Below are positions 12,001-26,591 of a stretch of DNA of 64,000 nucleotides, piece by piece. The DNA comes from an uncultured Spirochaetota bacterium. GTDB taxonomy: Bacteria > Spirochaetota > Spirochaetia > SZUA-6 > Fen-1364. Below the pieces are notes generated by a model, which saw only the letters and a program-made list of their open reading frames with translations, did no database searches and was not told the DNA's origin. The stretch is taken from positions 96,001 through 160,000 of the forward strand of contig CAVTHO010000010.1 in assembly GCA_963734545.1 (NCBI GenBank), read 5' to 3'. How positions within the stretch are numbered: position 1 is the first letter of the stretch; each line of letters begins with the position of its first letter. Position numbers and translations under genes: made by a program.

Positions 12001-15000
12001 CGCCGCCGTCCGCGATGACCTTGGTGAAGCTGCCGGTGCCGCTCTCCGGGAAACGGTGGCTCCATTCGCCGTACTCCACGGTGATGGCACTGGCATCCCC
12101 GGTCACTGTGAACTTCTCGCCGCCGTCCGTGGTATCCAGGTACTCGCGATCACCTGCCCGCTTGCCGGTATGGAGAATCAGGGTCCCGGCCTCCTCATGC
12201 GCCAGCACCGGCTGGACCTTGGGCGCCTTGTATTCCCATTCCGCCAGGGTGATGTCGAAGATCTCCCAGTCCACCACGCGCTTCATGATCTTGCCGACGA
12301 ACGGGATGGACACTCCCACGTCCACGAACACGTAGGCTTCGAAGTACGCGCGGCCGTGCAGGTTGAAGAGGTTCAGGAGCCCTCCGGGGGCGTCGTAGCC
12401 GGTGTAGTTCCACATGGTGATGAGCTCGGACACGCGGATCTTGCCGTCGTCGTTGATGTCCTGGAGGTCCAGGCCCGCCTCGAAGCCGATGTCCCCGCCC
12501 AGGCCCGCCTCCACGACGAGCGCCCAGATGGAGGCCTCCACGCCGATCTCGATGCCGAAGGTGAGCTCGTCCTTTTCCTTGCCCTTGTTGTCGCCGCTCA
12601 GGCTGTAGTCCGATATGAAGAATCCGTCGAAGGCTTCCCAGGCGTTCCCGGTCTGGATGGCGCGCCTGATGCCGTAGGTGTCGTAGCCGAAGCCCAGGTC
12701 TGCCGTGATGCGGAACCCGCCCTTTCCGTACACATTGATCACGACCGGGCCCGCGGTGATGGAAGCGATCTGCTGGAGGAAGCTGAGCTCATATCCGAGA
12801 AGGGGCATCTCGTAGGTCAGGAGCGTCGCGTCCCCGCCCGTCAGGAGCTTCATCCAGTTCCCGATGTCGGTGAGGTAGTCGATGATCTCGAAGCCGCTGC
12901 GCTGCTCCGAGATGGTCCCGCCGCCCGCGCCGGTCTGTATCGTCTCGCCGCCCAGGCTCATGTTCTTGATGTCGTCCAGGAAAGACTTGAAGTCGCTCAC
13001 CAGGGAGTTCTCCGCCTGGACGGCCGAAGGATGGTCGGTGCCGAGGCCGAGGATGTTGCCCAGGAGGATGTCCCCGTTCGTGCCGAGCATCTTGTCCACC
13101 GTGAGGGTGAGGTCGATCATGTTCTGCACTGCGTACAGGAAGGCGGGCGGCATCTCGGGATAGCCGAAGAGCGAGGCGATCTTGTTGATGAGGCCCAGCA
13201 GGCACGGCGGATCGACCAGCACGTCCAGCCCGGGGACAGGCGTCAGAAGGATGTCGACCACGATCCCGACGGGCTCCAGGATGTCGGCGATCTTGTCCAC
13301 GATGGGCTTCAGGATGTCGCTGATGAAGCTTCCCACCTCCAGGCGCAGGTTGTTCAGCCCGATTTCGGGCTCCTGAGCTCCGTCGTCCAGGCTCCAGCCC
13401 CAATTCGCCACGAGGTCGGCCCGCAGGCGCGGGAGGCCCTTTGCGCCCTCGATTTCCAGGATCAGGTCGAGCTTCAATGTCGCGTCCACGCCCAGGTTCA
13501 CGTTGAAGAGATCGTCCATGGGCGTGGAGAGGAGCCGGTTGAAGGTGAGCCGACCGGTGCCCGGCTCGCCCGACACGTCGATGGAGAGGAACCCGAAGAG
13601 GCCGCTGGGCTGGAACCCGTCCTTGGCCGGGTCGCGGTCCGCGTCCCGGGCGGTCACCTTGAAGAACAGCAGCACGCCTTCGGCGACGAACGGAGTGACC
13701 ACGGCGTTGTCCAGGGGCTTGCCGTCCAGGAAGGCGCCGATCTCGACCTCGATTTCAGGGTCGCCGGGATTGTGGGTATCGTTGGTGACGAGATAGAACC
13801 CGTCCGCCAGGCTCAGGCCCATGCCGAAGTCGAAGGTCCATGACATCTGCACCGCGAACCCGCCGTCCACCTGCAGCCCGAAGCCCGGCAGGTCTATGTC
13901 CAGGGGGATGTCCACCCCGGTCCCGAACACGATCCCGCCCAGGGACACCTCGAACTGGATGGCATCCGCGTCGGAGTCGTACCCGTCGCTCTCCTGGGGC
14001 ACCTCGTCGCCCAGGACCCACGCTTTCAGCAGGTTTCCGTTCTCGTCGTACCAGCCGACCATGATGTCGGAGATATCGATCCGCCCGTCTCCGTTCCCGT
14101 CCAGGACGATGTCCAGACCCGAGGGGCCGAATACATCCCAGATCGCGTCGCGAATGTACTGGATGGCCGCCCCGGGCCTTTCCAGCTTGGCCCGCAGCTC
14201 CGCCAGGAACCCGAGGCGCAGATCCCGGATGAAGGTCGCGGCCTGTGCCAGCTTGTTCCCCACGATGGGCAGGTCGACCGCCAGGTTGGAGCCCAGCACG
14301 TCCTGCACCGCGCCCAGGGCAAAGTCCACGCCGTCCAGGATGTAGCCGGGGTCGTTGAGGATGCTCAGAAGCGAGAAGTCGGGCAGCTCGAGATTCGGAA
14401 GCACCACGATGACCGCGTCCACGGTGCCCGTGGGGGATCCGGCGAGCCTGCGGAACACCTCCAGGAGAGCCTGCTCACCGTACCCTGCCGGGCTCGGCGC
14501 GGCGTTGGTGTAGACGTGGACCGGGTCCAGGTCGAAGAGGCCGGGGATTTCGACCGGCAGGAGAATGTCGAACCCGCCCTTCAGGTCGTAGTCGAGATTG
14601 TCGAGGATGCCTTCGTCCAGGAAGTGGAACCGGCCGTCGTCCGCGACAGGGCCCGACCGCTGGTTGATGGACAAGGTGAACGTGGCGAAGTCCACGGCGG
14701 TGACGACCGCGCCCTCCGTGTAGAAGGCGCCCCCGGCCCCGTAGGTGAGCCTCCCCAGATACGCCGAGCCGCCCCGCACGCCGATCCCGAAGGGCTGGAA
14801 CAGCAGCTCGAGGTTTGTCCCCTCCACCTTCAGGCCGATGGTGACTCGCGTTCCCGTGTCGTCGGCGGGGGAAGAGTTGCCCTGATCCTCAAAGTCGAAG
14901 AGGAAGAAGTCCACGTTCCCGTTTTCGATGTCGCCGAAGTCGATCCCCACGTCGACGACCATCTCGACGAAAGCGTCCCAGGAGATGTCGGCCCCGGCAG

Positions 15001-18000
15001 ATACCAGCTCGTCGATGAACCCCCAGCCGGTCCCCGTGCTTCCCGTGAACATGCCGATGATATCGCCCAGGTTGAAGGAGAAGCTGACGTTCATCATGTC
15101 TTCGGAGAGGATGTCCGAGAGGACCTTGTCCCACTCGATGTGCAGCTTGAGGACCGTCATGTCGGCCAGTGACAGGGAGAAGACCTGCTGGTCCGGCGCG
15201 AGGCTGTTGTTGTCGTGAATGCCCAGCGCGTCCTCGATGATCACTTCGACTTCCTGGATGGCTGCCGCGGGGTTCTCCGCCGCCGTCTCGAGCTTGTTCA
15301 GGAGGTTATCGACGAAATTGAAGGCGTCGCTCACCCTGCGGTTGATGATGGGGATTTCCTGCTCGTAGAAAGGAGTTTCCTTCAGCGCCGCCTCGATGAA
15401 CTGCACGCCGGAGCGGATGGCCTCGATGATGTTCTCGAAGCTCAGGTCCTTGAAGCCGAACGAGCTCCCGAAGTCGGGAAGAACGAGGACCACGTGCTTC
15501 GCCGCGATCCACTGATCGAACTGCGCCTGGTTGTACTCGGTGTCGAGGACCGTTTCGATATTCGACCACTCGGTGAGGTCGGGAATGGTGAGGGAGATCT
15601 CCTTGCCGGCCAGGGCGCTCGTGTCGAGGAGAGGAATTTCCGGCTCCACCGCGAGGCCTTTCAGCTTCGCCTGGGCGTAGCCTTCAAAGTCGAAGTCGAG
15701 GGCGTCGATGAGGTCACCGCTCACGAGATCCAGGAGAGAGAAGGTCCGGTCGTTCTCCGTGGCAAGGTTGCCGTCCGCGTCGAGAGTCAGGGTGGCCCGG
15801 GCCAGGAGGTGCACCCCGCTGCCCGTTCCCGGGCCGCCCGCCGTGAGGCTTACGAACCCGAGCCGGGCAAAGAAGGCGAGGTTCTCGAGGTCCAGGGACG
15901 CCCGGCCGGAAACGTGGGCATTGTTGATGAGCACGCTCAGCCCCTCGCTCCCGGTCAGGCCGTCGAAATCCACGATCCATTCGAAACCGCCTTCCACGGT
16001 GACCTTCAGGTCGGCGACGGCGGAGGTGCCCAGCTCCAGCACGTCCCCCAGATCGAACCCGAGGTTCAGCGGGAGGCCCTTGATGTTGAAGAGGTCGACC
16101 TCGAAGGAGGCCACGTCGCTTTGCGTGAGCAGCCCCACGTCCACCAGCTCGTACAGGTCGAATCCGTCGAAGCTCAGTTTCCCGGCCTCCACCAGGTCGA
16201 GGTCGGAGAGGTTGGACCGGCCCAGGAGCCCCGCGCCGATCAGGTCTGCCAGGGTGACGCCGAGGGTATCCGACGCCAGGAGGTCAACGAGGTTTATTGA
16301 CGATTCGGGGATGACACCGGCCCCGATGAGCCCCTTGCCGACAAGGTCGGCCACGGCGAGGCTCACGTTGGTGAACTCGGATCCCCCGATGAAGCTCATG
16401 TCGATGAGGTCGGACAGGCTGTACAGTTTCAGCCCGGTCAGCGCGGTCATGTCCACCCAGTCGGCCTGCTGGAGCTCCGTCGTCAGCGCCAGGCTGCCGT
16501 CGGGTTTGGTCGCGTACAGCGAAACGTGCAGCTTCAGCAGGTCCGCCCCTGTCATGAGACGGGAAGCGATCAGGGCGTCATAGGGGATTTTCAGGCCGGT
16601 CTTCAGGCTCGTCGCGGAAACAAGGTCGGCGTCCAGGAGATCGGTCAGACGGACCTTCACGGCAGTCGAGGAAAGGAGCGCGGACAGGGAGATCGTCGAC
16701 CCGGTCAGCGCGCCGGGGGAAACGAGCTTGAGGCTCTCCAGGGACGAAATCGACAGGGAGGTGGCGGGGGCGAAGGAATCGGCCGTGATCAGGTCCCACT
16801 GTGCCAGATCGCGCAGTTTCACCAGGGGCAGGTTCAAAAGCCCGTCCAGGAGAACGTCCTTGTCAAACTCCTGCGACGGGTTGATGGCGCCAAGCTCGAG
16901 AAGCTTCGCGAAATCCGCCCGGCCCAGGTTGTTCAGGTTCCGAAGGTTGAAGCTGTTCAGGAGGAAGTTGAAATCCACCGGCAGGTGAAGGCTTCGCGTT
17001 GCAGGATCGTAGACGGCGTCAAGGCCGGCAGGCAGGATTCCCGCCCTGGTGAACTCTTCAACAAAGCCCTGGACGGTGTTGATCCTGGCCAGGTCGATCC
17101 TGGAGAATACCTGCTCGTTGAAGGTGGTGGCGAAGTCGAAGATATCGCCCAGGGTCTTGTTGACGATGGGGATTTCGGTGGACATGAAATCCGAACCGCT
17201 CACGGACTCCAGCCAGTCCAGGGTGTTCTGGATCATTGCAATCAGTGAGCCGAGGTTGAAATCGCTGAAATCAAGGAGGGATTCGAGGTTCTCGTGGGTG
17301 AGAGCGAGCGAAGGGCCGCCCGCTTCGGGGAAGAGAGTGCCGCTCAAGCCCACGCGGGGCGGCGCGCGGGGATCACCGAAACTGACGCCGCCAAGGTTCG
17401 CGAAGACGGGAAGGTCCACCTCGATGTAGTTGTTCCGCGTTCCGGCGCTGTTCATGGTCGGGGCAAAATCAATGCCCGCGCTCTCGTGGTAGGAAACGGT
17501 CGCTCCCAGGTCCAGGGACAGATTTCCTTTTTCTCCGTCGGCCTTGCCTATCGAGATGTCCAGGGGCCCGATGGCGGCGCCCAGGACCAGGTCATCAACG
17601 GACGCGTGACCCTGGAAGGTCAGATGGTTTATGGAGAAGGAAGCTTCGTCGGTTTCCCAATTGAAGGAGAAGCTCAAGGACAGATCCATTGCCAGAACGA
17701 GATTCACCTGGGCATCGCCGTCCAGGACCAGGCCGATGGTCTGGGCCGGCTCACCCAGATTGATGCCCATGGTGCGCTGATAGGTCGACGCAGCATCGAA
17801 GGTGACGCTGACCCCGACAATGGCGTCCGAAGCGTTCCGCTGGGGCTCCCAGGCCAGCAGGCCGTTACCCCCGGCCAGGCTGGGGAGCCAGTACTTCTCG
17901 AGGTACGTGAAGAGGCCGCCGATGGTGGGGCCTCCCGCACTGTAGAAATCCTTCTCCGGGTTCCCCGCCTCCTCCTGCCCCAGGGGGATGCTCAGGTCCC

Positions 18001-21000
18001 GCTCGAATGTCCCTGTCGTCAGGTACGGACGCAGGTAGTGCTTGATGTACTGGCCGAGCTGCAGCAGGTTGTCGAGCCCCAGGAGGCCCACGAGCGAGGA
18101 ATCGGTGCCGGGAATGGTCTTGTTGAGGAACGCGTTTCCCTCCGCGACGACGTTTCCCCGGTTGTCGTAGCGCGTGATGAACTGGTCTTTCAGGTCGAGG
18201 ATCTGGTCACCGAGCAGGTCCAGGGCCGCGAAGGCCAGGTCGTTCAGGATCCCGCCGATTTCCCTCAAGTCTGCCGTGAACCCGGGGGAAAGCTCACCGT
18301 CGTAGAGGTCAGTGTCCCCGAATCCGATGCTTCCGAGCGCCACGCCCGTTCCGCCCACCGAGGCGTAGAGGGGCAGGAAAACGAGCACACGGTTCTGGAA
18401 GGCATTGTGGGCCTTGTCCTCCTGGTGGTTGAAGCTGAAGGCCCCGGCGTCAAAGGTTACGCTTCCACCCAGCTCAATCTCCACCCGGCCGGCGTGGTTG
18501 GTGTGCAGGTCGATTGCCTCGTAGCCCAGGCCGATCTCGATGTCGGGGGCACTGAACGATCCTGAGAACTTGAACTCGTCGAAGTTGAACGCGAACTCCC
18601 CGGTAGAGAGATCCACCCCGAAGTCGAACCTCAAGGCCGTGGAGACGGACACTGCGAGGTCGACCTCGGCGTCGAGCGCGAGCCCCACGCCGCCCAGGTT
18701 CTCCGCGATGGCGAGGGTCACAACGTCGGCAAAGGAATAGGCCCCGTTGAAGGAGATTCCCAGGTGGCTGCCGGCCATCGTCACGGTCAGGAAGTCACCG
18801 CCCACGCCGGTCGAAATCCCCGGCAGTGTCGGGACCCAATGGGCGGTCAGGAAGGACGCCAGGCCGTTCCAGATGTCCGCCGGCGTGACATCTCCCGTGG
18901 CCACCGAGCCCGGCCCGATCCAGGACACCGTGTCGAGGTAGGCGAACACATGGGTGTCGATGTCGAGAAGGGCCTCGATCCCATTTCCCGCGCCGAAGAA
19001 GCTGTTCAGGTCACGGTCGATCCCGGGGATCGTCAGGTCGAAGAACCCCGAGCCGAGCAGGTCCTGCTTCAGGCCCCGAATGAGCCCTGCCAGGTCTTCC
19101 AGGAGTCCCCGGATCACGCTGTCCGCCAGGTTGCCGAGGGCGCCGGCGATGTCGGGAGTCGTGATGATCACGGGATCATAGGGGCCCGGGTTGAGGTTCA
19201 CGATGTGCCGGAAGACCTCCTCCAATCCCGTGTTGATGCTCCCCTGATAGAGAGGATTGGTCCGAATGCTCAGATCCGGCGACAGGGGTATCACGGTCCC
19301 GAACACGTCCAGGGTCAGGGGCAGAACGACTTCCAGGCCGCCGTTCACGCCCGCGAACTGGACGTTGTCCAGGAGGTTCTCCGTGGCGAAGTGGAACCTC
19401 CCGTCCGACAACGGATCTGCCGGATCCAGCACGAAGGCAATGGTAACAAAGTCCGACCGGTCGGCGGGATCCGTCGCCTCCGGGTTCGTGGACGCGTCCC
19501 CGTCGGCGTCCATGGTCATCGTTCCCGCTGTTACGCTCAGACCGATGGAATCGAAAATGCTGAACGACAGGTCGAGGTTCTCCGCGAGCAGCTTGAACCC
19601 GGCATCCACGCGCGTGCCCGTCTGCTCGGCGTCGTTCCAGTCGTAGAGGAACTTGTCGGCCGACCCGCCCGATGCCCGGGGCCCAAGGTCAATTCCGGCC
19701 TCGATTCGAACCCGGGCGAATGCGCTCACGCGGACGGTCCCGCTGCCCTCCAGGGCCACCAGGTCGTCGATCCCTTCCAGGCCGGGGAGACTCCCGCCGA
19801 CGAGACCCTTGAACAGACCGAGATCGAAATTGAAGGGCGTGCTTTCCTCCACGTCCTCTTCCAGCTTGAACCGCAGGCGAAGGACTGTGCCCTCCATGAA
19901 GACGGCGAAAACTGCCCCTGCTGTCTCGAAGTTCAGACCCAGCTTGTTCAGGATCAACCCTATCAGTTTCTGGATGTCGTTCTCCGGGTTGTACAGCTCA
20001 CGCTCCACGGCGTTCACGGCATCATTCATCATTCCGATGAAGGCCAGGATCTCGCGCGGGGATTTGTCGATCAGGGGGATCCTGAGGTCCTTGAAGGCAT
20101 CGTAGATCGGGGAGTTGGGATCCGTGACCCAGAAGGGAAGCCGGTCAAAAGCCTTGAACGCGTAATCCCGGGCCCTCAGGATCATGGACAGTATGTCCTC
20201 GATATGGAGGTACTGGTAGAAAGTGAAAGCAGCGGGGAGGTTTGTCAGGTCGAGGGTCATGTAGCCGGGGGCGGTCCGGGCACGGGCCAGATCGCTCACC
20301 ATGAGCGTGACTCCGCCATCGTCCGACGCGGGGATCCCGCCTATGCCCGTGTTCACCTTGATTCCGAGCAGCGTCGCCTGCGCCTCGCCGGTCACAGCGC
20401 CGTGAAGGATGGAAGCGACATCCAGCCCCGAGAGGGACGAGATCAGGAATTGCCGATCGCCGGCGGTCGCAAGGTCACCGTCCTGGTCGGGCACCAGGGT
20501 CTGCGACACGTTCACCCGGACAAGGCTTCCCGGTGCGTATCCCAGTGTCACCCCCACGAATCCGAGCCGACCCGCGGCCTCGAAGTCCGTCACCTCGAAA
20601 GATACCGACCGTGTGAGGGACGCCGCGTCCACGGAGTACGTCAGCTCCCCTTCGGTCGGACCGCCGGTCTCCCCGTCAAAATCCACGACATAGTCGAGCT
20701 GTCCGGACACCTCGACCAGGAGGTCTGCCAGCGCCGTTGTCCTCAGACCCACCAGGTCGAGGCCGTAGTCACCTGAAAGGTCGAGGGCCGCACCGTTCAA
20801 GCCGAAGTATTGCAGGGCGTGGCTGTCCACCTCGGCGTCCCCCACAAGACCCAGGCTCACGAATGACGCCAGGCTGTCCAGGTCGTTCAGGTTCAGGAGG
20901 CCGCGGTCGCCGAGCTCGTTAAGGGAGAAAGACGGGGTCTTGAGATCTGCTGAGACGAGCAACCCATGGGCAGCCAGGCTCCTCAGAGAAACCAGTTCCT

Positions 21001-24000
21001 GATCGAGAAGGGCGTCCTTGTCCACGGTGGCCGAGGCGCCGAGATAGGAGGGATCCACCACGCCCGCCTTGACCAGATCGCTGAACCCGGCAAGTCCGAG
21101 GGAGAGAAGGCTCCCGGCCCCGTTCAAGAGAACCTCGTCGTTTCCGGCGCCCGTGATGACGGCGGCCTCCTGGAGGATTGCCCGGTCGAACATCCGGGAC
21201 GAGGCCACATCGTCCAGCGACCGGGCCGTCACAGACCGGCTCAGGTCGCCGAACCCGACCAACCCGTCCGCAACGAGTCCCTTCAGGGACACGAGTCCGG
21301 ATCCGAGCAGCGCCTGGAGGGACACCATACCGTCCGGTCGGATCAACCCCAGGGCGTTCAAGGCCGCCGTTGTGACCAATCCCGAGCCCGTGAGAGCGGC
21401 AGGGCTCAAGGCCTTGTTATTGAAGCGGCTCTTGCCCACGAGGCCTTGATCCACCAGCTGGGGAAGCTCCGCGCCGTGGCGAATGATCAGATCGCCGGGA
21501 TTCAAGAATCCCCAGTCGATCAGGTCCCCCAGGTAGATCGTCTCCAGGACATCGTAGAGAAACACCTGATGCGCGCTGATGTAGTTGTTGAGGTCCCCGT
21601 TCTCGAACAGGACGGATTCCTCGAGCTTCACGATATCCAGGCCCATGCCGGGGTCAGCCAGGTCGGCGGCATCCACGAAGTCCCGGCGAATCAAGGACAG
21701 GAGCGTCACGCCCTCCAGGTCCAGCGCCACCAGGGTCCGCACGGGCACCGCGGCACCCAGGGTGTCGGGGACATCCACCGCGAAGGCAGTCTCGATGTCG
21801 GCCGCGTTCAAACCGACGTCGACGAAATCATCCAGACCGACAAACTCGTAGCCGACATACTCGGCGAGGGTCAGGTCGTAGAGAATGGAGCTCAGGAGCG
21901 TGCTGAGAGGGACCGTGCCCAGGTGAACGATGCCATCGAACTGACCGTCCGTGAAATGGGCGGATCCCTCCAGGTCGCTTTGCTCGAACACCTTGTTGAC
22001 GAAGTCCTGCCGGGAAAGAAGGCCGCAATCCACCAGGGATGCCAGCGTCACGTGACTGTCGGCAAGAAGGTCCTCGAGGGAAACGAAGCCATCGGTGCCC
22101 ACAAGATCCTGCTCAACGATGTACTTCTTTCCCACCACGCCGGAATCCAGGAGCTTCTCCAGGGGTACATGCCCGTTCGCTGCCAGGTCCCCGGCGTCCA
22201 CGAGCCCCGCGTGCACAAGCTGCCACAGGCTGACGGCGCTCTGCTTGTAGAACTGGGCCGGGTCCACCAGGCCTTTCTCGACAAGGGCGTCAATGGAAAC
22301 CAGGTTTTCAGCGAGGAATGTTTCAAGGTCTATGGGGCCTGAGTCACCGTATCCGAGAGTTGAAAGGGCATTGCGAGCGACGATATCCGAGGTCAGAAGG
22401 TCCGGCAGAGGAAGGGTGGGTACGAGTAGAGGCAGCGCCGAGGGCGGCCCGCGAGCAAGCTCGTGCAGGCTCACCATATCCAGCGCCAGCAGGTCCGACA
22501 CGCGCACATAGTCCGGCGCCCCTCCCTCGCCCTCCTGAACCAGGTTATTCTGCTCGAGCTCCCGGATCGAGACCTTCGCCGCGGCCAGAAGGTCGTCCAC
22601 GGTGATCGTCGCCGCGCTCAGGTCCACGTCGTCGGCCGTCACGAGACCGGCAGAAACCAGGTCCTCCATGGTCAGAAGGCTTCCACTCAAGAGATCGGAG
22701 ACGGCGACAACATCGTTTCCCGCGCTGTCCTGTGTCACCAGCCCGTCCAGGAGGGCCAGCTCGAGGAGGTCCGACTCAAGGAGAGCCTGCCGGTCCAGGC
22801 TGCCCTGCACGAAAAGATCGGCAAGCAGCACTTCGGGCAGGTCATCGTTCAGGTCATTCACGGTGATGAGCCCCACCCGGACCAGGTCTTCCATGGTGAC
22901 GGAGGTGTTGGCCAGCAGCAGGGCCGCGGTGACCCGGTCACCGTGACGAATAAAGCCCAGGCCGTCGAGCTGTTCGGTGATGGTACGGTCAAAACCGAAC
23001 AGGCGCAAATCCGCGGCCGGAAGGTCAGCCAGGCGACCGCGCTCAAGCAGTCCCTGGTCGACCAGGTCTCCCATGGTCAAAGAGCCGGCGGACACGATTT
23101 CGGGTATGGACCTGCGTGTCGTCATGCTCTTGTCGATGACCCGGGAGCTCAGGAGAGCGGCTTTATCCGCTTCACCCAGCGGACGGAGGTTGTCGTGGGT
23201 GAGGATCTGGAAGTATACGAGCTGGCTCAGGGTGATGGGGCTTTGCTCCAGCAGCGCACCGAGGTCGATGATGGAGCCCGGGCCGATCAGCCCGCCGTGC
23301 GCCGTGATCGCGGTGAAAAGGGAAGAGGCCTTGGCCATGATGTCCGAGGTGCGCAGCTTGTCCAGCAGCACCTCGGCCGGCAGGATAAGATTGCTCCGGG
23401 CCAGGTCTCCCAGATCGGCGAGGCCAGAATCGACAAGGGCGCTCAGGTCGATGTCCTCGATGTTCAGCGCGGAGATACCCACGAGCCCCGCGTTCACAAG
23501 ATCGTCGATTCCCGCCAGACCGGAGCCCAGGACAGCCCCCAGGTCGAGGGACTCCGTGGCCAGGGCGGACACGTTGAGCAGGCTTTCGCCGACCAGCTCG
23601 GCCACGTTCGTCAACCCCGATCCAAGAAGGGACGAAAGGGAAAGCTGGCTCAAGGTCAGATTGCCGGCGGAAACAAATCCGGCCCCGATCAGCTCTTCCA
23701 GCGTGATTACCCCGGAAGCGGCCAGCGCGTGCAGGGAAACGCTGCCGGAATTGTTGAGACCCTTGTAGTCCAGCTCGAACTGGGTTGCCAGCCCTGCCGC
23801 AACGAGACTCGCCGTGCTCAAGGTCGCGTCCGCGAAATCAGCGGCCTGGACCAGGTTCTTCTTCACGAGCTCGGTTAAGGTGGCGACCCCGCGGGAGAGG
23901 ATGCCGCTGACGGGCAGGAGGGTTGACGGAGTGAAATCGGAGGCGGCAATCAATCCTTCCCGGACAAGATCATTGAGCTGGACAGCGGCCCCGGAAATCA

Positions 24001-26575
24001 GGTTCTGGATGTTCACGAGGGCCGCTCCGGCAAAATCCCCGGCCTGCAGCAGCCCTTCGCTCACCAGGTCCCCCAGCGCCACCACGCCCGAGGAGAGAAG
24101 CTCGGTCAGCGACAGCTTGTCCAGGCCGATGCTCCCCAGGTTCAGCAGCCCCTGGTCGAAAAGGCTCCCGAGCGAGGTGACTCCGCTGCTCAGGAGATTC
24201 TGCAGGTCCACCAGATCCGTGGTTTCTATCATGCTTGTCAGGTCGATGCCGTAGTCGGCGAGCCTGGCCGCCAGGGCGTTGATGTCGCTGACAAATCCCA
24301 GCTTCGCGATAACACTGTCATAGGTAACGAACCCGGCATCCACCAGGTCCCCGAGGGTGACGAGCCCGGAATCTATGAGCTCATCCATGTCCACCGTGCT
24401 GCCGTAGGAGGCCAGGCTCCGTGTGCCGATGATCCCCGCGTCCGCCAGCGCGTTCAGGTTCAGGCCGCCCCAGTTCGCGACGGATTCAGGAGAGAGCAAC
24501 CCCAGCTCGGCAAGCCGGGAGAGGGTGACGAATCCATGGTCAAGGAGGTCATCCATGTCCACCAGGTCGCTGACCTGGACGAGGCCTTCCTCGACCAGGA
24601 GGTCCACGTTGACCCAGCCCAGGGCGTCCAGATCGCGAAGCCCCAGCTGGTCCAGCTCAACGTCGAAAGCCAGGGGAAGAGTGAGCGCCTGGGCGGCAGG
24701 ATCGTATGTGGCGGCTTCCCCCGACTTGAGGAGACCGGACGCATCCACGGCAGCCACGAAGTCCTGGAGTGTCTCGACGCCCTCGATATCGAGCTTCGAG
24801 AGCATCGCCGCTTCAAAAGCCGCGCCGAGATCAACCACCTCGGACAAGGAGCGGCCCAGGAACGGCACGGCGACGTCGAGCCCGGCGGAGCCGGCAGAGG
24901 CATCCAGCCAATCCAGGAAATCCGCGATGCCGCCAACTGCCGCGGAAAGGTCGAACCTGCCGAGGCTCGCAAGCTGGGCAAAGTCTCCGGAACCTGTGAT
25001 GGCGGGATCAGCCCCGCCGAAGAGCGTCCCGCTCACATGGATGGTCGGCCGCGCGCTCCCGCCGCCCGTGACGTCGGCCTGGTCCGCCAGTGCCGCGTAC
25101 ATCGGGAGGACAACGTCGAGGGTGTTGGCGGTGAGGCCAAAGGGATTCGACGTGACTGCGCTCGGCGTGAATACGAATTGATCTCCGCTCAGCGCAACAT
25201 CACCGCACACGTTCAGGGTCGCTGTTCCCAGGGTGCTGCCGACGCCTCGTCTCCCGACACTCGTCTCCAATGTTCCCACCCGGGCAGCGGAAAGCAGCTC
25301 CGTTGCACTCGCCCCGGAATCAATGTGCAGCCCGGTGAGGATGAACTGCGTCCCGCCGCCGGCCAGGTCCACCTGCAGCGTGAAGTCCACGTCACTGTCT
25401 CCGACAATCGGAACGGCGATTGTTCCTGTCAGGTCCAGCCCCAGTGCCTCGCCATAGCGGCTCAAGTCAAGGACAAGCTCTTCGTTCTTGATGCTCAAGT
25501 CCGTGCCGGTGAAGTGGATGCTGAGCCGGCCGTCGCTGACCCCTACAGTGATTGTCTTCGTGCTGTTGGAGAGGGTCGGGAGCCAGTTCGTTTCCAGATG
25601 GAGCTTCAAGCCGCTCAAGGTGGGCACGCCGCCCGTTGCGATGTAGTCACCGGCCGGAAGGAGACCGGCCGCGGCGCCCTCCCCGGCAGGATGCAGATAA
25701 GGTCTCAGGTAGGATTGAACGTAGTCACCGATGGACAACAGATTGTCCATCTGGGCCAGCTCGCTGAGGGAGAGACCGACCCCCGGGATCTCCCGCGTCA
25801 AAGCCTCGTCGCCGCGCGCATTTACCCCGAGGGCGGTCACGAATTGCCCCAGGGACTCGATGTACGTGGCCATCCTGGTCAGTCCTATCTCAGCCGGCCG
25901 GAACTTGACCACCAGGCTCTCGCCGACAGCCGGAATGACCTTGACGTCCGCGGAAGGCACGGCGCTGCGAACGGACAACGCAAGGGACTCGTCCTTGACC
26001 AGGACCTGGGCTACTGTTGCCCCGCCGGCTCCCCCGCTCAAGGCAGATATGAAGGACGCCTTGACGGCGGCATCGGTTACGCCAATCGTCTGGAATTCCA
26101 CGGTCAGTCCGGGCTGGGACTTGAACCCCGCAAGCTCGTCCCCCGCAGAATCGGTCTGCGCCAGGCTGCTGACTCTCAGTATCGTGGCATGGTACACCGT
26201 CGCTGCTGCTTCGAAGGCGCTGTTCAGCCAGTGCACACCGTATCCCGAAGCGCCGGCGCTCACGGTATGGCCCGACGGCGAGATGGCAACCCAACGGGGA
26301 GCGTTGACGTGGTTGAACCACTCCACGGTCAACAGGGCGTCCAGCGAAAGCCTGTACTGCGAATAGTCGGTGGGGTCAGCGGGGAAATCCAGCTGAATGC
26401 CGATGGCCCGCTGGAACGCGGCAAAAGAGGACGCTGTCAGGTCCTGGAAGATGCCGTCCACCTCGAGGAAGTTCCCCTGGTGGTCCCGGTACCCCAGGTA
26501 GTTGAGCCTTTGCTGGATCTTGGCGACCTGGAGCGGGGTCAACTGAGAGATCTGCTCCGGGCCGTCGATGGCCAT
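2..26575 (-). CDS. Giant secreted/surface repeat protein, main body (at least 8,858 codons, 3' end beyond the window start); RTX and haemagglutinin-like adhesin
   Basis: Manual translation of the minus frame from ATG 26575 (MAIDGPEQISQLTPLQVAKIQQRLNYLGY...) to the window edge (...HLHYKKLFDLRFLSGF...). The ORF track has no minus-strand ORF in this frame anywhere in 1-26.6 kb, as expected if no stop occurs. All long plus-strand shadow ORFs (170, 818, 2771, 6359, 9098, 15215, 17294, 18764, 20966, 22463, 24536) are in register with it. The nearest upstream in-frame stop is TAG at 26648-26650. Confidence 0.93.
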   Translation of the reverse strand, partial: MAIDGPEQISQLTPLQVAKIQQRLNYLGYRDHQGNFLEVDGIFQDLTASSFAAFQRAIGIQLDFPADPTDYSQYRLSLDALLTVEWFNHVNAPRWVAISPSGHTVSAGASGYGVHWLNSAFEAAATVYHATILRVSSLAQTDSAGDELAGFKSQPGLTVEFQTIGVTDAAVKASFISALSGGAGGATVAQVLVKDESLALSVRSAVPSADVKVIPAVGESLVVKFRPAEIGLTRMATYIESLGQFVTALGVNARGDEALTREIPGVGLSLSELAQMDNLLSIGDYVQSYLRPYLHPAGEGAAAGLLPAGDYIATGGVPTLSGLKLHLETNWLPTLSNSTKTITVGVSDGRLSIHFTGTDLSIKNEELVLDLSRYGEALGLDLTGTIAVPIVGDSDVDFTLQVDLAGGGTQFILTGLHIDSGASATELLSAARVGTLETSVGRRGVGSTLGTATLNVCGDVALSGDQFVFTPSAVTSNPFGLTANTLDVVLPMYAALADQADVTGGGSARPTIHVSGTLFGGADPAITGSGDFAQLASLGRFDLSAAVGGIADFLDWLDASAGSAGLDVAVPFLGRSLSEVVDLGAAFEAAMLSKLDIEGVETLQDFVAAVDASGLLKSGEAATYDPAAQALTLPLAFDVELDQLGLRDLDALGWVNVDLLVEEGLVQVSDLVDMDDLLDHGFVTLSRLAELGLLSPESVANWGGLNLNALADAGIIGTRSLASYGSTVDMDELIDSGLVTLGDLVDAGFVTYDSVIAKLGFVSDINALAARLADYGIDLTSMIETTDLVDLQNLLSSGVTSLGSLFDQGLLNLGSIGLDKLSLTELLSSGVVALGDLVSEGLLQAGDFAGAALVNIQNLISGAAVQLNDLVREGLIAASDFTPSTLLPVSGILSRGVATLTELVKKNLVQAADFADATLSTASLVAAGLATQFELDYKGLNNSGSVSLHALAASGVITLEELIGAGFVSAGNLTLSQLSLSSLLGSGLTNVAELVGESLLNVSALATESLDLGAVLGSGLAGIDDLVNAGLVGISALNIEDIDLSALVDSGLADLGDLARSNLILPAEVLLDKLRTSDIMAKASSLFTAITAHGGLIGPGSIIDLGALLEQSPITLSQLVYFQILTHDNLRPLGEADKAALLSSRVIDKSMTTRRSIPEIVSAGSLTMGDLVDQGLLERGRLADLPAADLRLFGFDRTITEQLDGLGFIRHGDRVTAALLLANTSVTMEDLVRVGLITVNDLNDDLPEVLLADLFVQGSLDRQALLESDLLELALLDGLVTQDSAGNDVVAVSDLLSGSLLTMEDLVSAGLVTADDVDLSAATITVDDLLAAAKVSIRELEQNNLVQEGEGGAPDYVRVSDLLALDMVSLHELARGPPSALPLLVPTLPLPDLLTSDIVARNALSTLGYGDSGPIDLETFLAENLVSIDALVEKGLVDPAQFYKQSAVSLWQLVHAGLVDAGDLAANGHVPLEKLLDSGVVGKKYIVEQDLVGTDGFVSLEDLLADSHVTLASLVDCGLLSRQDFVNKVFEQSDLEGSAHFTDGQFDGIVHLGTVPLSTLLSSILYDLTLAEYVGYEFVGLDDFVDVGLNAADIETAFAVDVPDTLGAAVPVRTLVALDLEGVTLLSLIRRDFVDAADLADPGMGLDIVKLEESVLFENGDLNNYISAHQVFLYDVLETIYLGDLIDWGFLNPGDLIIRHGAELPQLVDQGLVGKSRFNNKALSPAALTGSGLVTTAALNALGLIRPDGMVSLQALLGSGLVSLKGLVADGLVGFGDLSRSVTARSLDDVASSRMFDRAILQEAAVITGAGNDEVLLNGAGSLLSLGLAGFSDLVKAGVVDPSYLGASATVDKDALLDQELVSLRSLAAHGLLVSADLKTPSFSLNELGDRGLLNLNDLDSLASFVSLGLVGDAEVDSHALQYFGLNGAALDLSGDYGLDLVGLRTTALADLLVEVSGQLDYVVDFDGETGGPTEGELTYSVDAASLTRSVSFEVTDFEAAGRLGFVGVTLGYAPGSLVRVNVSQTLVPDQDGDLATAGDRQFLISSLSGLDVASILHGAVTGEAQATLLGIKVNTGIGGIPASDDGGVTLMVSDLARARTAPGYMTLDLTNLPAAFTFYQYLHIEDILSMILRARDYAFKAFDRLPFWVTDPNSPIYDAFKDLRIPLIDKSPREILAFIGMMNDAVNAVERELYNPENDIQKLIGLILNKLGLNFETAGAVFAVFMEGTVLRLRFKLEEDVEESTPFNFDLGLFKGLVGGSLPGLEGIDDLVALEGSGTVRVSAFARVRIEAGIDLGPRASGGSADKFLYDWNDAEQTGTRVDAGFKLLAENLDLSFSIFDSIGLSVTAGTMTMDADGDASTNPEATDPADRSDFVTIAFVLDPADPLSDGRFHFATENLLDNVQFAGVNGGLEVVLPLTLDVFGTVIPLSPDLSIRTNPLYQGSINTGLEEVFRHIVNLNPGPYDPVIITTPDIAGALGNLADSVIRGLLEDLAGLIRGLKQDLLGSGFFDLTIPGIDRDLNSFFGAGNGIEALLDIDTHVFAYLDTVSWIGPGSVATGDVTPADIWNGLASFLTAHWVPTLPGISTGVGGDFLTVTMAGSHLGISFNGAYSFADVVTLAIAENLGGVGLALDAEVDLAVSVSTALRFDFGVDLSTGEFAFNFDEFKFSGSFSAPDIEIGLGYEAIDLHTNHAGRVEIELGGSVTFDAGAFSFNHQEDKAHNAFQNRVLVFLPLYASVGGTGVALGSIGFGDTDLYDGELSPGFTADLREIGGILNDLAFAALDLLGDQILDLKDQFITRYDNRGNVVAEGNAFLNKTIPGTDSSLVGLLGLDNLLQLGQYIKHYLRPYLTTGTFERDLSIPLGQEEAGNPEKDFYSAGGPTIGGLFTYLEKYWLPSLAGGNGLLAWEPQRNASDAIVGVSVTFDAASTYQRTMGINLGEPAQTIGLVLDGDAQVNLVLAMDLSLSFSFNWETDEASFSINHLTFQGHASVDDLVLGAAIGPLDISIGKADGEKGNLSLDLGATVSYHESAGIDFAPTMNSAGTRNNYIEVDLPVFANLGGVSFGDPRAPPRVGLSGTLFPEAGGPSLALTHENLESLLDFSDFNLGSLIAMIQNTLDWLESVSGSDFMSTEIPIVNKTLGDIFDFATTFNEQVFSRIDLARINTVQGFVEEFTRAGILPAGLDAVYDPATRSLHLPVDFNFLLNSFNLRNLNNLGRADFAKLLELGAINPSQEFDKDVLLDGLLNLPLVKLRDLAQWDLITADSFAPATSLSISSLESLKLVSPGALTGSTISLSALLSSTAVKVRLTDLLDADLVSATSLKTGLKIPYDALIASRLMTGADLLKLHVSLYATKPDGSLALTTELQQADWVDMTALTGLKLYSLSDLIDMSFIGGSEFTNVSLAVADLVGKGLIGAGVIPESSINLVDLLASDTLGVTLADLIGAGLLGRSNLSDLDLVEAGKLSFDGFDLYELVDVGLLTQSDVASFEVDLFNIKGLPLNLGFDLGDVLELGTSAVADLKVTVEGGFEWIVDFDGLTGSEGLSVLINNAHVSGRASLDLENLAFFARLGFVSLTAGGPGTGSGVHLLARATLTLDADGNLATENDRTFSLLDLVSGDLIDALDFDFEGYAQAKLKGLAVEPEIPLLDTSALAGKEISLTIPDLTEWSNIETVLDTEYNQAQFDQWIAAKHVVLVLPDFGSSFGFKDLSFENIIEAIRSGVQFIEAALKETPFYEQEIPIINRRVSDAFNFVDNLLNKLETAAENPAAAIQEVEVIIEDALGIHDNNSLAPDQQVFSLSLADMTVLKLHIEWDKVLSDILSEDMMNVSFSFNLGDIIGMFTGSTGTGWGFIDELVSAGADISWDAFVEMVVDVGIDFGDIENGNVDFFLFDFEDQGNSSPADDTGTRVTIGLKVEGTNLELLFQPFGIGVRGGSAYLGRLTYGAGGAFYTEGAVVTAVDFATFTLSINQRSGPVADDGRFHFLDEGILDNLDYDLKGGFDILLPVEIPGLFDLDPVHVYTNAAPSPAGYGEQALLEVFRRLAGSPTGTVDAVIVVLPNLELPDFSLLSILNDPGYILDGVDFALGAVQDVLGSNLAVDLPIVGNKLAQAATFIRDLRLGFLAELRAKLERPGAAIQYIRDAIWDVFGPSGLDIVLDGNGDGRIDISDIMVGWYDENGNLLKAWVLGDEVPQESDGYDSDADAIQFEVSLGGIVFGTGVDIPLDIDLPGFGLQVDGGFAVQMSWTFDFGMGLSLADGFYLVTNDTHNPGDPEIEVEIGAFLDGKPLDNAVVTPFVAEGVLLFFKVTARDADRDPAKDGFQPSGLFGFLSIDVSGEPGTGRLTFNRLLSTPMDDLFNVNLGVDATLKLDLILEIEGAKGLPRLRADLVANWGWSLDDGAQEPEIGLNNLRLEVGSFISDILKPIVDKIADILEPVGIVVDILLTPVPGLDVLVDPPCLLGLINKIASLFGYPEMPPAFLYAVQNMIDLTLTVDKMLGTNGDILLGNILGLGTDHPSAVQAENSLVSDFKSFLDDIKNMSLGGETIQTGAGGGTISEQRSGFEIIDYLTDIGNWMKLLTGGDATLLTYEMPLLGYELSFLQQIASITAGPVVINVYGKGGFRITADLGFGYDTYGIRRAIQTGNAWEAFDGFFISDYSLSGDNKGKEKDELTFGIEIGVEASIWALVVEAGLGGDIGFEAGLDLQDINDDGKIRVSELITMWNYTGYDAPGGLLNLFNLHGRAYFEAYVFVDVGVSIPFVGKIMKRVVDWEIFDITLAEWEYKAPKVQPVLAHEEAGTLILHTGKRAGDREYLDTTDGGEKFTVTGDASAITVEYGEWSHRFPESGTGSFTKVIADGGAGDDVFNASGLVGVSVEFDGGEGSDKLTAGNAGGILIGGPGDDTLAGLGAGTTGDMTLDGGPGNDRLTGGAGNNTMSGGAGDDRLTSLGGDDILDGGSGVDSLSGGDGADTYVFATDFGEDTFRDAQGVTVLDFSAVTTGLTVQINKTGITVATAGVELKAGRSNVTRIVLGTGNDIVTIKEPPERVIEIEDAGGASTITFELGRQTSTKADGTIRLLDNDTAFDELILRNIPGIQPNDTLPDILEFNDHEIVSGREIIQFTDGLEQVTLPVEESEIDAAGVTTTHLRDLTIVSTNGPAGVVMGATDLVVTARNLTVEPRLDGDSFVFTAVEDVILNGTVHATGDFDITADSVGTSATVVNGVADAAGTIAHRIDAHDLDWIIRVSGLVVTVPINAINNGRLDIHTANNALPSDIDLRADITSGSGDNSDNLGGGTIKLVAEGSLYMRNNMRFLGAGTHLIIAADDILNYSTGSVNTIITTVAGITVFTRDEGAVAGSEIVIEETDSLVVYGVPVADVPALNPAGLSSAHGIITVTLNGVGARLTLHTGSIITRAPGMDITLTADDFDFLSAPYERDPDPARARGGVIGTGRLFLKAMQATDFILGTAAEHELGNDWTYIHDTYPGFTNFPAHVGGNFTGEGLEATYNNDGSLFANTVHLSTRDLSAIKEGFTLITIGEDYADPLALNPTERMTFGDAMNAAVVKYDGRPRVRDSSFRDDVILNARRIYIEGEVQACATPGQPPVTLEVNTDRLHIKSKNINNPLGGTDSGITGDLLVLDGVRNRMIVDGWLRTNGSIYVNIQGDGESYVSPMMSSVEDDTRRLNNVIQGVAGTIETLLDGGVIEIITKNSVVLEGHTIVRGENARITILPGTFFELVQIAGVISSRDAESLIHIEAPEAVYINGEILAGVEWQGGVKALTGPGADVVIRTPHELRIYGAITSSDVMDLRGAVDQDWNDRDPVSASIHLTGQLMSLADNSLLRLEGPDDIIIEGSIFVRGKGAGLLIDSGQRVKFATSFVEVEDGINVYGRGETRDLDLDLVSSVLVEATAVITSFQNGSDVHIWGAKDVDIFGTVVAGGSIGPCGVIWSGTDSDIVVAAGEQVYLDSGLLASDSVTVTGGAAGPDDVSLGSEGGRVSVIINTAGGITSAGRTSDGSHGLVSLYGESGVEMMGHIYSGASKSLLLDAEGNLIKESVDFDTSVGGDVRIESPGQVFIGGWTRNMRSQVQLAEDVTLFFQDGEGTLLGSITLTKAQTKNNASLAQLRDQLSAALSGMAGGVIDIQIRNSRLVFVAENPFAITADSVHQDLLGLAGGELEANETLPGSSRYEIQALYSLFGDILVTGGYITAKDNIELRNVDTAAHPFIAGEIGVRIQGASEITTRRDYSLISIVAVNDAEIEGHLIAGGEVRNIRDSETGGYIGSELLDFGTAASHTAIRIAAGHQVRIGTVVRAGGLIELTGGDDPAEGDPADPFNFTNVSVLIYGSALVETWGENGRVVLSGPDPIKVLTPTHFYEIEPDTWVKGPLARIVGESDFLLGGVLPVPVTLDLWKRVDGVETTATVLIPGMDVRTEYPVAPDVGIIVHINGLLDASASFGDLDVSWLGRSILIDAPYDFAILPSSRNLDLLGLAPVLSSVIYYLPAEIEADEPLPTGGRLAADVTLDIRMEDAGGTVVDAPSVLITAASTLDNAGLDDLVDDVNAALDAGPFAPINAVLRAGKLVFTSLGYQFEIEKTSQNVNLLGMRYEWETAETRYEAILEAESAAPVTGQLVRDVTLVIRIEATDLEDVLLGAVVVPAAATTDNTTLPELASDVNDALASTLIPRYETEGLHFSHYVSAGIRDGKIVLTGDSAFKIKRASRNVALMGFTPGEDLEAVELFHDARVVADTELDSGVLATGILGGDVTLALAINRLGESSSGSFIIASDGARTGAADLLLDVNADLLLAGFGDIRATLEGNRIVFSSLYDFTIENTSVSAGLLGFTTVSGGAALDSARAPSVHELVGARPVPTTGILAQDVTLSITTVDSADVMISSLVAISRRDTDGTNGTANTGLDDLAADITRALQAAGLDITARYVSGTLVLASATLDIAINPLSENADLLGLSLAAAGGVSQSVRDPSIFDVVPHDPLSTTGVLPDNVELSIVMSNVDPNDDPKTLDPDLPAADPVTGERQGVATGRVVLSRDETRDNAGLDDLVADLNLAFIRGGFKEISALNEAGTLVISSARAFALVGDSVNGHLLGLTELAGVTEELAVRPPPTQRIIPLNSMVNGRLSADLTMELTFDDGMGGTFGGDVIVLQGATDGTQSGTTANAGIADLVRDLNDALAATPVPGLSGEYFGDYITAQDRRGVVVLVGSRVFHLTVELVDHLDQLGFTAGIKTSGLETPGFEITGTTDLPASGILTADVTLALAVDDGAGGWFTATVIVRQADTATNAGRADLLLDIETAFVAAPVFHDGVPTGSYAGQLIVVGNSGDRLLLTGNRAFSVIGDDSLEAGQLGMAAAPGTDVSAVLSVPLQVVAAEAVLPPSRGLAGDVVLDLRVLGTIPSEYTVTVPAAAAADNSTLADLVADVNDVMPAEIRAVEMGGSIAFVSGEVFKIEYSSVHEDLLGLTSMPNDTILANRSSNTGVLPEDVTLVIFISLGERKIVGQVTIPAAATTDNYSNGRIMDLLMDIQNALNSADYYALDGTALEPGYFADDPVTTGGAADPLIRVKLKNGKILLTSQYLFKVLPSAANPSGGAGFQSHHAELLGLDAVAGGAVAVPSRPFNIIAAAAGSEVQFGTPENPVGTLYIAGSVLSNHQISMVKGPATFLDLDWSSLLQTVDGPIVLDFGDTGELKGDLTAGGAEGDVILTANDTLTISGRIKADRNVHIEAGLAAGSGASGNSVVLNPTGYLKTTGPASSSQAIEIVGYNHVIVDGPIGSLQNDEPRMNGDVRITSLHADIAVTEESGWIETNGRIVLTAENLDISGVLKNAGVTAPEPAGDPTADNFEVVLAARDSVSISATGDLDALGSLLITAPTGVLIQGNIEAGGVETFEFLTENRTFLSAAGENVRILSDAITVAGATGTADESHPALPPGATYPLGASIVASSGVALIAGNGGILVARAGEVRTRLGGGVIRLEADYVDVLGGLIAGAERGRTYLGEEPALSWTAGSAGITIVASDLVTFGGVVTSTDLDVVNGDAAAAGEALAWGGSAQATGLVSITVTGGTAPFFSLNEKSFIRTEVLAGGSPSGVTLAVGDGAVIKGIIQSLDPGSDVTIGSGHGLLEISGFVEAGHNLHLTGADAGSVSPVSVLLTKLLNVTETLRVQTTAGSWGDFTVDANGQLINDSGFLIATDAEGRVVVDADGLPVLVEGTGGNPVLGATPVYITHDSAHALQFVDKLGHRMEKKASGRFYRVDAAGQLLDEAGFVIGEDGLRLDQGGNRINQYGSLINEDGSLKDGIAQPGLAPKATTGFVVAGLPERKSGGLLNTGQGGTITIDGAGDLELLGMVGRVHLDETTSLPAVDVQDVILESDAEIYFRGDALANAHHAVAVTGTNVWALDESVVIARGSGSSVSLTASGAEEGEGSIYIARSLIYYFRALIAAGADVTLTGRNIGVYGTISVGEAGGAVTLHAGSDVLVQGEILSAGDVTVQAGESEADGSIVVSQEGKIAAGYGPGTLSGNITLQAPGVVSLLAYDDTMNADLSFAPPYVTYELVYKDVVTGYRMVEAGYILRPVVHWVPTLTTEQTGFDDVKVGSEFASIETRLVQDGYWSDWAGVAESNRFREYFIEGIDFHVADLDWPGKYHPDTDSVYMRDPVSGVRLLVEDEALLYAIAEVINYSGLILDLGRPLAEGAALDAVVLDAQAGTTGGVMNPPLYVPASLMGGGAMSAALTVEGAAAVQDVQLYTAHTYTELHTGLVDRVISGTDDGETQYKGWGDLTDTERLNAIMDHLHYKKLFDLRFLSGFRMTVTLPAAVPMATAASTYSRFDGLTLEQARVLGATEMVSGIL
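3735..8310 (-). repeat. About 11 protein-level repeats of ~100-130 aa in the giant ORF (flagellin hook-IN-like); approximate bounds
   Basis: Recurring pattern GxLxxDVTL...DNxxLxDLxxDxNxAL...GxxVxxS...SxNxxLLG(L/F/M), e.g. GRLAADVTL/DNAGLDDLVDDVNAAL/SQNVNLLGM and GLAGDVVL/DNSTLADLVADVNDVM/SVHEDLLGL. Confidence 0.8.
11670..12010 (-). repeat. RTX Ca-binding nonapeptide repeats (about 8-9) in the giant ORF
   Basis: GGAGDD, GGEGSD, GGPGDD, GGPGND, GGAGNN, GGAGDD, GGSGVD, GGDGAD read in the minus frame. Confidence 0.9.
16100..16950 (-). repeat. Short Leu-rich micro-repeat array B (LxxLxxxGL[V/I/L]); approximate bounds
   Basis: e.g. VADLVGKGLI, TLADLIGAGLL, LYELVDVGLL. Confidence 0.7.
20800..24650 (-). 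repeat. Long Leu-rich micro-repeat array A (dozens of ~11-aa LxxLxxxGL[V/I/L] units); approximate bounds
   Basis: e.g. DMDELIDSGLVTLGDLVDAGFV, SLGSLFDQGLL, ALGDLVSEGLL, TMEDLVRVGLI, SLWQLVHAGLV. Confidence 0.8.
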
Positions 26576-26591
26576 GGCCCCGGTTCTGGAA

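Follow-up and report, generated by a model that had tools for sequence, protein, structure and literature searches.

LapA, SiiE and MpIBP are giant RTX adhesins that are exported by type I secretion and whose extenders are immunoglobulin (Ig)-like domains of ~100 amino acids (aa). Most giant proteins of bacteria bear the label "hypothetical", and dissections of their bodies are rare. Here, a window of 64,000 nucleotides (nt) from an uncultured Spirochaetota bacterium (GTDB lineage Spirochaetia; SZUA-6; Fen-1364) was analyzed, which corresponds to positions 96001–160000 of contig C10 (CAVTHO010000010.1) in a draft genome of 10 contigs and 89% completeness (GCA_963734545.1), and in which one giant open reading frame (ORF) contains a duplicated multi-kilobase unit with a Leu-rich repeat array inside each copy. 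Like the giant RTX adhesins, the encoded protein is very large, acidic and cysteine-poor (isoelectric point 4.2; 5 Cys in 12,450 aa), and it has calcium-binding RTX repeats as well as long tandem regions comparable to their extenders, but the unit repeated here is a helix-plus-beta-meander module of 305–360 aa without a Pfam match. With moderate confidence, we read it as a giant acidic protein of the LEPR-XLL/RTX kind whose N-terminal third is a chain of seven such modules, where a folded array occupies a turn of the middle module of each triplet and would stand out from the chain as an arm between two paired strands. The protein is probably exported to the cell surface or the extracellular space, and we infer that the array, whether arm or spacer, serves reach or binding rather than catalysis.

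Three other described systems are close enough to be compared. The LEPR-XLL proteins ("LEPR-8K", NF012209) likewise reach thousands of residues and have an RTX block, and their motif is present in the ORF adjoining the giant one as well as in G026, a homologue from a genome of the same order; the NF012209 model covers only the 24-position N-terminal motif and makes no statement about the body, and no paper dedicated to this family was met in a limited literature search. Leucine-rich repeats (LRRs), whose signature is LxxLxLxxN, resemble the arrays as Leu-rich tandems in which a short strand is followed by a helix, but the array period is 11 residues, its modelled strands are 21–44 residues apart and the signature is missing; no Pfam LRR family was retrieved at E ≤ 10 with four array pieces, and no LRR chain appeared in the Foldseek or VIA-align lists. 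Finally, the bridge-like lipid-transfer proteins (LPD-3/BLTP1) share with the modelled unit the repeated long-stranded meanders, each followed by helices, and LPD-3 (9cap_A) was the top Foldseek row for the whole-unit model described below (E 4.8e-4), but with a TM-score of 0.05 and a probability of 0.11; it was absent from the 50 best VIA-align rows, and no sequence relation was found.

The giant ORF lies on the minus strand and runs from window position 26575 down to 2 and past the low end of the window (the first base of residue a is at window position 26575-3(a-1)). Its frame in the contig comprises 12,450 aa from the ATG and 12,474 codons from stop to stop. The region of interest, at 14.3–25.8 kb of the window, encodes residues 244–4106. 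It had been predicted from the letters alone that the same ordered landmarks occur here twice, with a partial third copy in between, and all the strings were recovered in the same order at the proposed places (residues in copy A/copy B: IPG 263/2821, YLRPYL 289/2847, WLP 330/2895, LDWL 554/3119, YDPA 624/3189, VDFDG 1964/3535, RLGFV 2003/3571, TGTRV 2319/3907, DGRFHF 2391/3980). BLASTP aligned the two copies along two diagonals, one of 28.5% identity over 716 columns (residues 244–915 vs. 2798–3489, E 1.5e-46) and one of 29.4% over 741 columns (residues 1832–2518 vs. 3409–4106, E 1.9e-44). The collinear A/B diagonals, on which the original prediction had been made to depend, are also present in a self dot-plot of the whole protein (250-aa windows), together with the internal repetition of array A and a short extra diagonal for the partial third copy. 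The latter (residues 2508–2754) matches residues 2813–3068 of copy B (24.7%, E 1.3e-11) and 239–496 of copy A (22%, E 0.002). The extents agree as well, with copy A at window positions 19022–25846, the partial copy at ~18314–19054 and copy B at 14258–18184, and so do the array sizes (A: 3.86 kb for a predicted ~3.8 kb; B: 0.87 kb for ~0.85 kb). The duplicated macro-unit with arrays of different length is therefore confirmed as an observation.

Each copy had been described as a scaffold domain, a description that has to be given up, since three copies of one homologous module of ~305–360 aa (m1, m2 and m3) make up the macro-unit, which is not a single domain. A head motif with a helix after it, I/L-P-x-x-G/N/D, was met seven times, at residues 263, 2166, 2516, 2821, 3135, 3741, and 4102, spaced by ~305–360 aa when the arrays are excluded, and a variant (VPFLG) is found at residue 570 in copy A. 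For each stretch, an alignment was made from family members and the modules were compared profile against profile with hhalign, which gave probabilities of 92–97% over 107–272 columns: m1 of B matched m2, taken from the array-less P0017, at 95.9% (E 5e-9, 267 columns), m3 of B matched m2 at 97.0% (E 9e-11, 272 columns), the lone m1 matched m3 of A at 95.5% (266 columns), and m1 of B matched m3 of A at 93.4% (210 columns) and m3 of B at 92.7% (107 columns). At 73.7%, m3 of B and the lone m1 formed the weakest pair. A single additional m1-type module accounts for the partial third copy and matches m1 of B with a probability of 100% (E 6e-62). The recurring head motif and the profile matches together define seven homologous modules, m1-m2-m3 (A), m1, and m1-m2-m3 (B), arranged in the window as follows:

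24890..25810, minus strand: copy A, module m1 (residues 256–562), opening with the IPG..DNLL..YLRPYL..WLP helical head
24659..24889, minus strand: copy A, head of module m2 (residues 563–639), with LDWL, the VPFLG motif and the YDPA strand
20801..24658, minus strand: array A (residues 640–1925, 1,286 aa)
20105..20800, minus strand: copy A, beta body of module m2 (residues 1926–2157), with VDFDG, RLGFV, and DxDGxLAT
19055..20104, minus strand: copy A, module m3 (residues 2158–2507), with the IPLID motif, TGTRV, and DGRFHF
18140..19054, minus strand: lone m1-type module (residues 2508–2812)
17198..18139, minus strand: copy B, module m1 (residues 2813–3126)
16964..17197, minus strand: copy B, head of module m2 (residues 3127–3204), with the IPIVN motif and the YDPA strand
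16091..16963, minus strand: array B (residues 3205–3495, 291 aa), of the same repeat type as array A
15380..16090, minus strand: copy B, beta body of module m2 (residues 3496–3732)
14297..15379, minus strand: copy B, module m3 (residues 3733–4093)

An AlphaFold2 model of the whole unit (residues 2821–4020, 72-sequence alignment) had a mean predicted local distance difference test score (pLDDT) of 77.8 and a predicted template modelling score (pTM) of 0.40. In each module it places a helical head, followed by long, amphipathic antiparallel strands of up to 26 residues, so a module would consist of a short helical head and a meander of very long strands.

The arrays interrupt module m2 at a defined point, as had been proposed. 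The distance from YD.A to VDFDG is 53–56 aa in 10/10 array-less units (those that match the landmark patterns), and the array-bearing units share the same flanks. Where the array-less units read "..T-L-T-V-P-I-T-F", ~8 residues and then "G-I-P-L-D-L-N-L..", the array-bearing ones hold 270 to ~1,700 extra residues between "..LHLPVDFNF" and "GLPLNLGFDLG", and the conservation of the flanks is similar in both groups. From the constant spacing and the shared flanks it follows that the array occupies a short turn between two consecutive strands of m2. In the whole-unit model, strands are placed on either side of the site (model residues 375–380 and 671–683, pLDDT ~74–80), and from their adjacency they presumably pair as a hairpin. 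The flanks were also submitted as separate chains (m1 with the m2 head, residues 2821–3204, and the C-side flank, residues 3496–3760) to complex prediction, which returned a score of 0.01 against a mark of 0.32 and is evidence neither way.

Other changes were seen in relatives. The array-less P0025, a sister of clade A in the tree described below, has three tandem units of ~35 aa ("..LV.GG..T......FD....LT.") exactly at the insertion site (residues 690–830), and G026 carries two Leu-repeat units elsewhere (residues 640–680; 8.5 and 7.1 bits), the only clear matches of our repeat profile in array-less proteins; these suggest a tendency to change in the site as well as in the repeat. The module chain takes up inserts of variable length at two more places in P0006, P0007, P0009, P0015, P0021, and G026, one within the m2 head (~147 aa in G026, ~75–90 aa in others) and one within m3 (~120–145 aa); both places are empty in the protein studied here. 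An origin of the array by tandem duplication of the native "FVxxFxxAGILPxG" segment that precedes the site was considered and rejected, as the repeat profile missed this segment in 28/28 array-less relatives.

Array A consists of 20% Leu, 10% Asp, and 10% Gly, and its 11-residue period is visible as an identity of 0.168 at lag 11, compared with a mean of 0.094 (sd 0.014) over lags 1–119. The recurrent unit can be written approximately as (V/L)-(S/T)-L-x-(D/E)-L-(V/L)-x-x-G-L-(V/L)-x-x-x-D-(L/F), and a repeat profile made from 221 windows of seven proteins has the consensus LVDLDDLVDSGLVDLSDLV. This profile found 28 units in array A and 5 in array B, matches that are partly circular because the profile was built in part from the protein itself; no match was obtained in the scaffold, in the remaining 8,344 aa or in five shuffles of array A, and shuffled array B gave a single match of 0–3 bits in 2/5 shuffles. 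At the DNA level no array repeats were detectable (Tandem Repeats Finder reported five trivial rows with periods of 7–15, and a direct-repeat scan only 25–46-nt families at 60–80% identity), which indicates that the repeats are old. An AlphaFold2 model of array B with its flanks (356 aa, 23-sequence alignment) reached a pTM of 0.66 and 10-residue block means of pLDDT between 82 and 97 across model residues 51–270, and in the whole-unit model the block means of the array core were mostly 80–94. In the model, a strand of 3 residues and a helix of 6 make up the repeat, to which most units add another short helix, and the strand-to-strand distances are 21, 35, 44, 32, and 21 residues. As modelled, the array is a folded alpha/beta repeat and not a disordered linker. 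Array A also contains degenerate, proline-bearing stretches, which are places where it could fold back.

Neither part of this architecture resembled a curated family. For the whole region, Pfam gave only HemolysinCabind and PG_binding_1 (22 bits, below the cut-off of 23), NCBIfam only RTX-related models, and a sequence search of the PDB with array A and copy B no match at E ≤ 1, so that by sequence both module and array appear to lie outside every curated Pfam, NCBIfam, and PDB family searched. The only notable Pfam row at E ≤ 10 for the array was Ribosomal_L27A (PF00828, ribosomal protein L15/L27A), which scored 24.5 and 25.7 bits on two array pieces (cut-off 21.5); what is shared is a short "L..L...G-L-V" helix-turn motif covering at most 50 profile positions, and we read the match as motif likeness and not as homology, given that the motif is short and repeated and that the giant protein would be extracellular. 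Structure searches were similarly unspecific. Below LPD-3, the Foldseek rows for the whole unit included ApoB, BPI, CETP, and LptD, and the best VIA-align matches (Z up to 6.6) were barrel-like meanders (model residues 66–285) and helical hairpins (888–948), so the matches of the modelled unit seem to reflect common arrangements only. The array model had no Foldseek match in the PDB at E ≤ 0.001 (best E 1.5) and none at Z ≥ 5 among 48,161 chains in VIA-align. Its best row was the XPA DNA-binding domain (Z 3.9, root-mean-square deviation 3.7, 48 residues aligned), and a winged-helix/excisionase-like likeness of one sub-unit of ~55 residues (Z 3.3–3.5) was set aside as too weak to name a fold; a missing structural match neither proves a new fold nor excludes an LRR fold. 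The ESM Atlas contained no usable match to the array and matched the scaffold only to "hypothetical protein" clusters. In the literature, a limited search met nothing on module or repeat, which does not establish their absence from print.

Copy B was used as a HMMER query against 1.84 billion cluster representatives and retrieved 182 of them at E ≤ 1e-3 (114 at E ≤ 1e-10). Sub-modules were mapped on the 150 family members listed together with G026, and most long members among these have a single triplet and no array; the triplet would be the ancestral unit of the family, with distant relatives carrying it once. Five orthologous giants (5,906–7,222 aa) are 55–65% identical to the C-terminal part of copy B, and the order A, lone m1, B is kept in all five as well as in two partial proteins. 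One orthologue is labelled as a hypothetical protein of "Phycisphaerae bacterium SM23_30", and other named relatives belong to Methylocystaceae (labelled LEPR-XLL), Magnetococcales, and the cyanobacteria Nostoc and Egbenema; P0018 bears the NCBI label LEPR-XLL. Among related genomes, copy B gave no match within the genus (20 genomes) or in 4 further genomes of the family, and one match (G026) within the order (16 genomes), while the array was found in none of 400 other genomes sampled from the phylum; within its own genome, neither array nor unit occurs outside the giant ORF (32,507 frames ≥ 80 aa). The distribution of the gene is patchy.

Array A measures 1,286–1,835 aa in seven proteins, and array B 285–357 aa in seven. 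Identities relative to the protein studied here are 46–50% for array A over ~1,275 positions in the five orthologues (35% in P0058), next to 50–52% in the adjoining scaffold (40% in P0058), and 43–52% for array B, next to 57–65% in its scaffold. The differences in length are due to a few discrete blocks, ~353 columns and some of 37–45 in A and one of ~63 in B. Judging from these alignments, "long A, short B" is a conserved feature, and array length would shift by rare gain or loss of blocks. The prediction of a tunable-length arm therefore holds to the extent that lengths differ among orthologues, but "tunable" overstates the case: the arrays align position by position with few block insertions or deletions and without repeats in the DNA, from which we conclude that their length changes slowly and not freely.

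The history that we favour begins with an m2 that, in one lineage, would have gained a Leu/Asp/Gly-rich repeat with an 11-residue period in the turn of ~8 residues between its first two strands. The array most likely predates the duplication of the triplet and would later have changed in length by gain or loss of whole blocks, and if the flanking strands are still paired, it would project from the module chain as a structured arm. Several observations weigh against this account. Both edges of the array (model residues 383–420 and 642–669) are modelled with little confidence, falling under pLDDT 50 in a whole-unit model whose pTM is low, and the flank strands stay below 60 in the array-only model. 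Moreover, a long regular repeat would have distant ends that fit poorly to an 8-residue turn, and a rod of 1,286 aa, if straight, would have great difficulty in coming back to it, which favours either a fold-back or an array that parts the helical head of m2 from its beta body and lengthens the fibre axially, with unpaired flanks in the array-bearing proteins. Such an in-line spacer is the less likely arrangement, though one to be taken seriously, since the flanks are equally conserved with and without an array and are modelled as strands in the whole unit, and the degenerate stretches of array A allow for a fold-back. Against export, the LEPR-XLL motif is not on the giant ORF as called and lies in a separate ORF in another frame, no signal peptide was visible by eye on the giant ORF as called, and no type I secretion components were present among the 11 upstream ORFs, with downstream genes and the rest of the genome not scanned.

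The single origin of the arrays has also to be weighed. In a tree built with LG+G4 and a quick search from 590 columns of 47 C-terminal parts, clade A (8/8) and clade B (8/8) each had a support of 100, but the best maximum-likelihood topology keeps them apart, with P0025+P0055 as the sister group of A (99), followed by G026+P0051 (89), and B joining this assemblage with P0026+P0034 in a weakly supported group (84). Six array-less units thus stand among the A and B clades, which implies either two gains or several losses. Separate gains of the two arrays at an expansion hot spot, after the triplet was duplicated, would agree with this topology and with the different short expansion at the same site in P0025 and the Leu-repeat units of G026. 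However, A and B as one clade were not rejected by the approximately unbiased (AU) test (p 0.247), and the deep nodes that part them have only 84–89 in the Shimodaira–Hasegawa-like approximate likelihood ratio test (SH-aLRT). The arrays also start alike ("L.LR[DN]L..LG" in both), their first ~140 aa are collinear (A residues 642–780 vs. B 3207–3347, 33% identity, E 2.7e-4), and the BLAST diagonals between A and B cross the scaffold junction into the arrays; the AU result, the like starts and the collinear stretch favour a single insertion before the triplet duplication, and a convergent one appears rather unlikely. A conduit for lipids or other hydrophobic cargo, in which the beta meanders form a continuous groove as in bridge-like lipid-transfer proteins and the Leu-rich arrays are accessory, could be read from the Foldseek rows (LPD-3 first, followed by ApoB, BPI, CETP, and LptD) and from the long amphipathic strands, but we consider it very improbable in view of the poor scores of LPD-3 and its absence among the best VIA-align rows, of the lack of AsmA, TamB, or related Pfam families even at E ≤ 10, and of the adhesin-like remainder of the protein, with RTX, cadherin-like, PKD, and Ig-like domains. 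Least credible of all is an artefact, either a duplication produced in assembly or an array that is low-complexity, disordered filler in a decaying gene: the draft state of the genome and the frame changes at both gene ends could be cited for it, but a collapsed or duplicated assembly is impossible with copies that are only 28–29% identical, the architecture recurs in the five orthologues and two partial proteins, the frame stays open over its whole length, and the arrays have both high-confidence models and a conservation that extends to single positions.

Outside the module chain, the following features accompany the giant ORF in the window:

2..26575, minus strand: in-window part of the giant ORF (residues 1–8858 of at least 12,450)
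12476..14296, minus strand: conserved "post" region (residues 4094–4700), present in all full-length relatives mapped
11600..12034, minus strand: RTX calcium-binding nonapeptide repeats (residues ~4848–4992), following the "post" region
26592..29552, minus strand: upstream ORF P0159 (986 aa), with the N-terminal LEPR-XLL motif (NF012209)

The "post" region opens with an LPIVG-type motif as the modules do, and its hhalign matches to them were weak (probabilities of 4–77%). Tandem GGxGxD nonapeptides were recognized by HemolysinCabind (PF00353; 32 bits vs. a cut-off of 23, residues 4910–4943), and the RTX_toxin subfamily model scored 52–57 bits against a cut-off of 1000, so that the giant protein is not a member of the hemolysin subfamily. 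The cadherin-like, PKD, and Ig-like domains are located close to the C-terminal end. The dot-plot also shows a block of diagonals from a second tandem array, unrelated to the first, at window ~3326–8578 (minus strand, residues ~6000–7750); this array has no Pfam match and, by eye, apparently units of ~130–150 aa. The acidic composition, the RTX repeats, the C-terminal domains, and the LEPR-XLL neighbour fit a large surface protein that would be exported.

In P0159, the LEPR-XLL motif is found at residues 7–19 (17.9 bits vs. the NF012209 cut-off of 17). The ORF ends 17 nt before the ATG of the giant ORF, on the same strand and in a different frame, and the giant frame is open for 24 codons before its ATG (26575–26647) and so overlaps the P0159 frame. 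In P0154, P0158, and G026, motif and modules share one polypeptide (the motif scored 20.6 bits in G026, and P0154 starts with it by eye), and the boundary between P0159 and the giant ORF is either a frame change, real or due to a sequencing error, or that of a truly split gene. At the other end, the last ~40 residues of the giant ORF look out of frame before the stop at C10:85223, and a ~100-aa tandem repeat ("..GGEGEDTLNVDDSGDGEPNSL..") runs on in another frame to the end of the segment analyzed (C10:85000–85359), so that the gene probably extends past 12,450 aa. After its LEPR-XLL motif, within the N-terminal 400 aa, the G026 homologue has an intact HEYGHALGYAH motif, which we take to be zinc-protease-like; the matching stretch of P0159 (window 26592–27300, minus strand) reads VMREMGVVLGLG and has no histidines. 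A regulator with HTH (helix-turn-helix), WYL, and WCX domains is encoded directly upstream of P0159 on the same strand (window 29687–30640, minus strand). Long plus-strand ORFs run antisense to the giant gene at 10–27 kb (up to 1,581 aa; e.g., window 9098–13843) and are most likely a by-product of its G+C-rich coding strand and not genes.

Repetition is nested here at three levels, the 11-residue repeat, the module of ~330 aa, and the triplet of modules, and the natural occurrence of one module with and without an array makes the family a clean system for studying how arrays are grafted and how their length evolves. The alignments would allow module and array to be defined as two domain families, and for neither does a curated model or a solved relative exist. 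The result bears on no long-standing open question. A bolder reading of the models, which we regard as doubtful, is that the array is an undescribed alpha/beta fold grafted into the hairpin turn of an undescribed module, where it would form a stiff arm that points sideways and is lengthened or shortened by whole repeat blocks. If this were true, the pair of a long A and a short B, kept over ~50% divergence, would give a new kind of giant extracellular fibre a built-in geometry with two arms.

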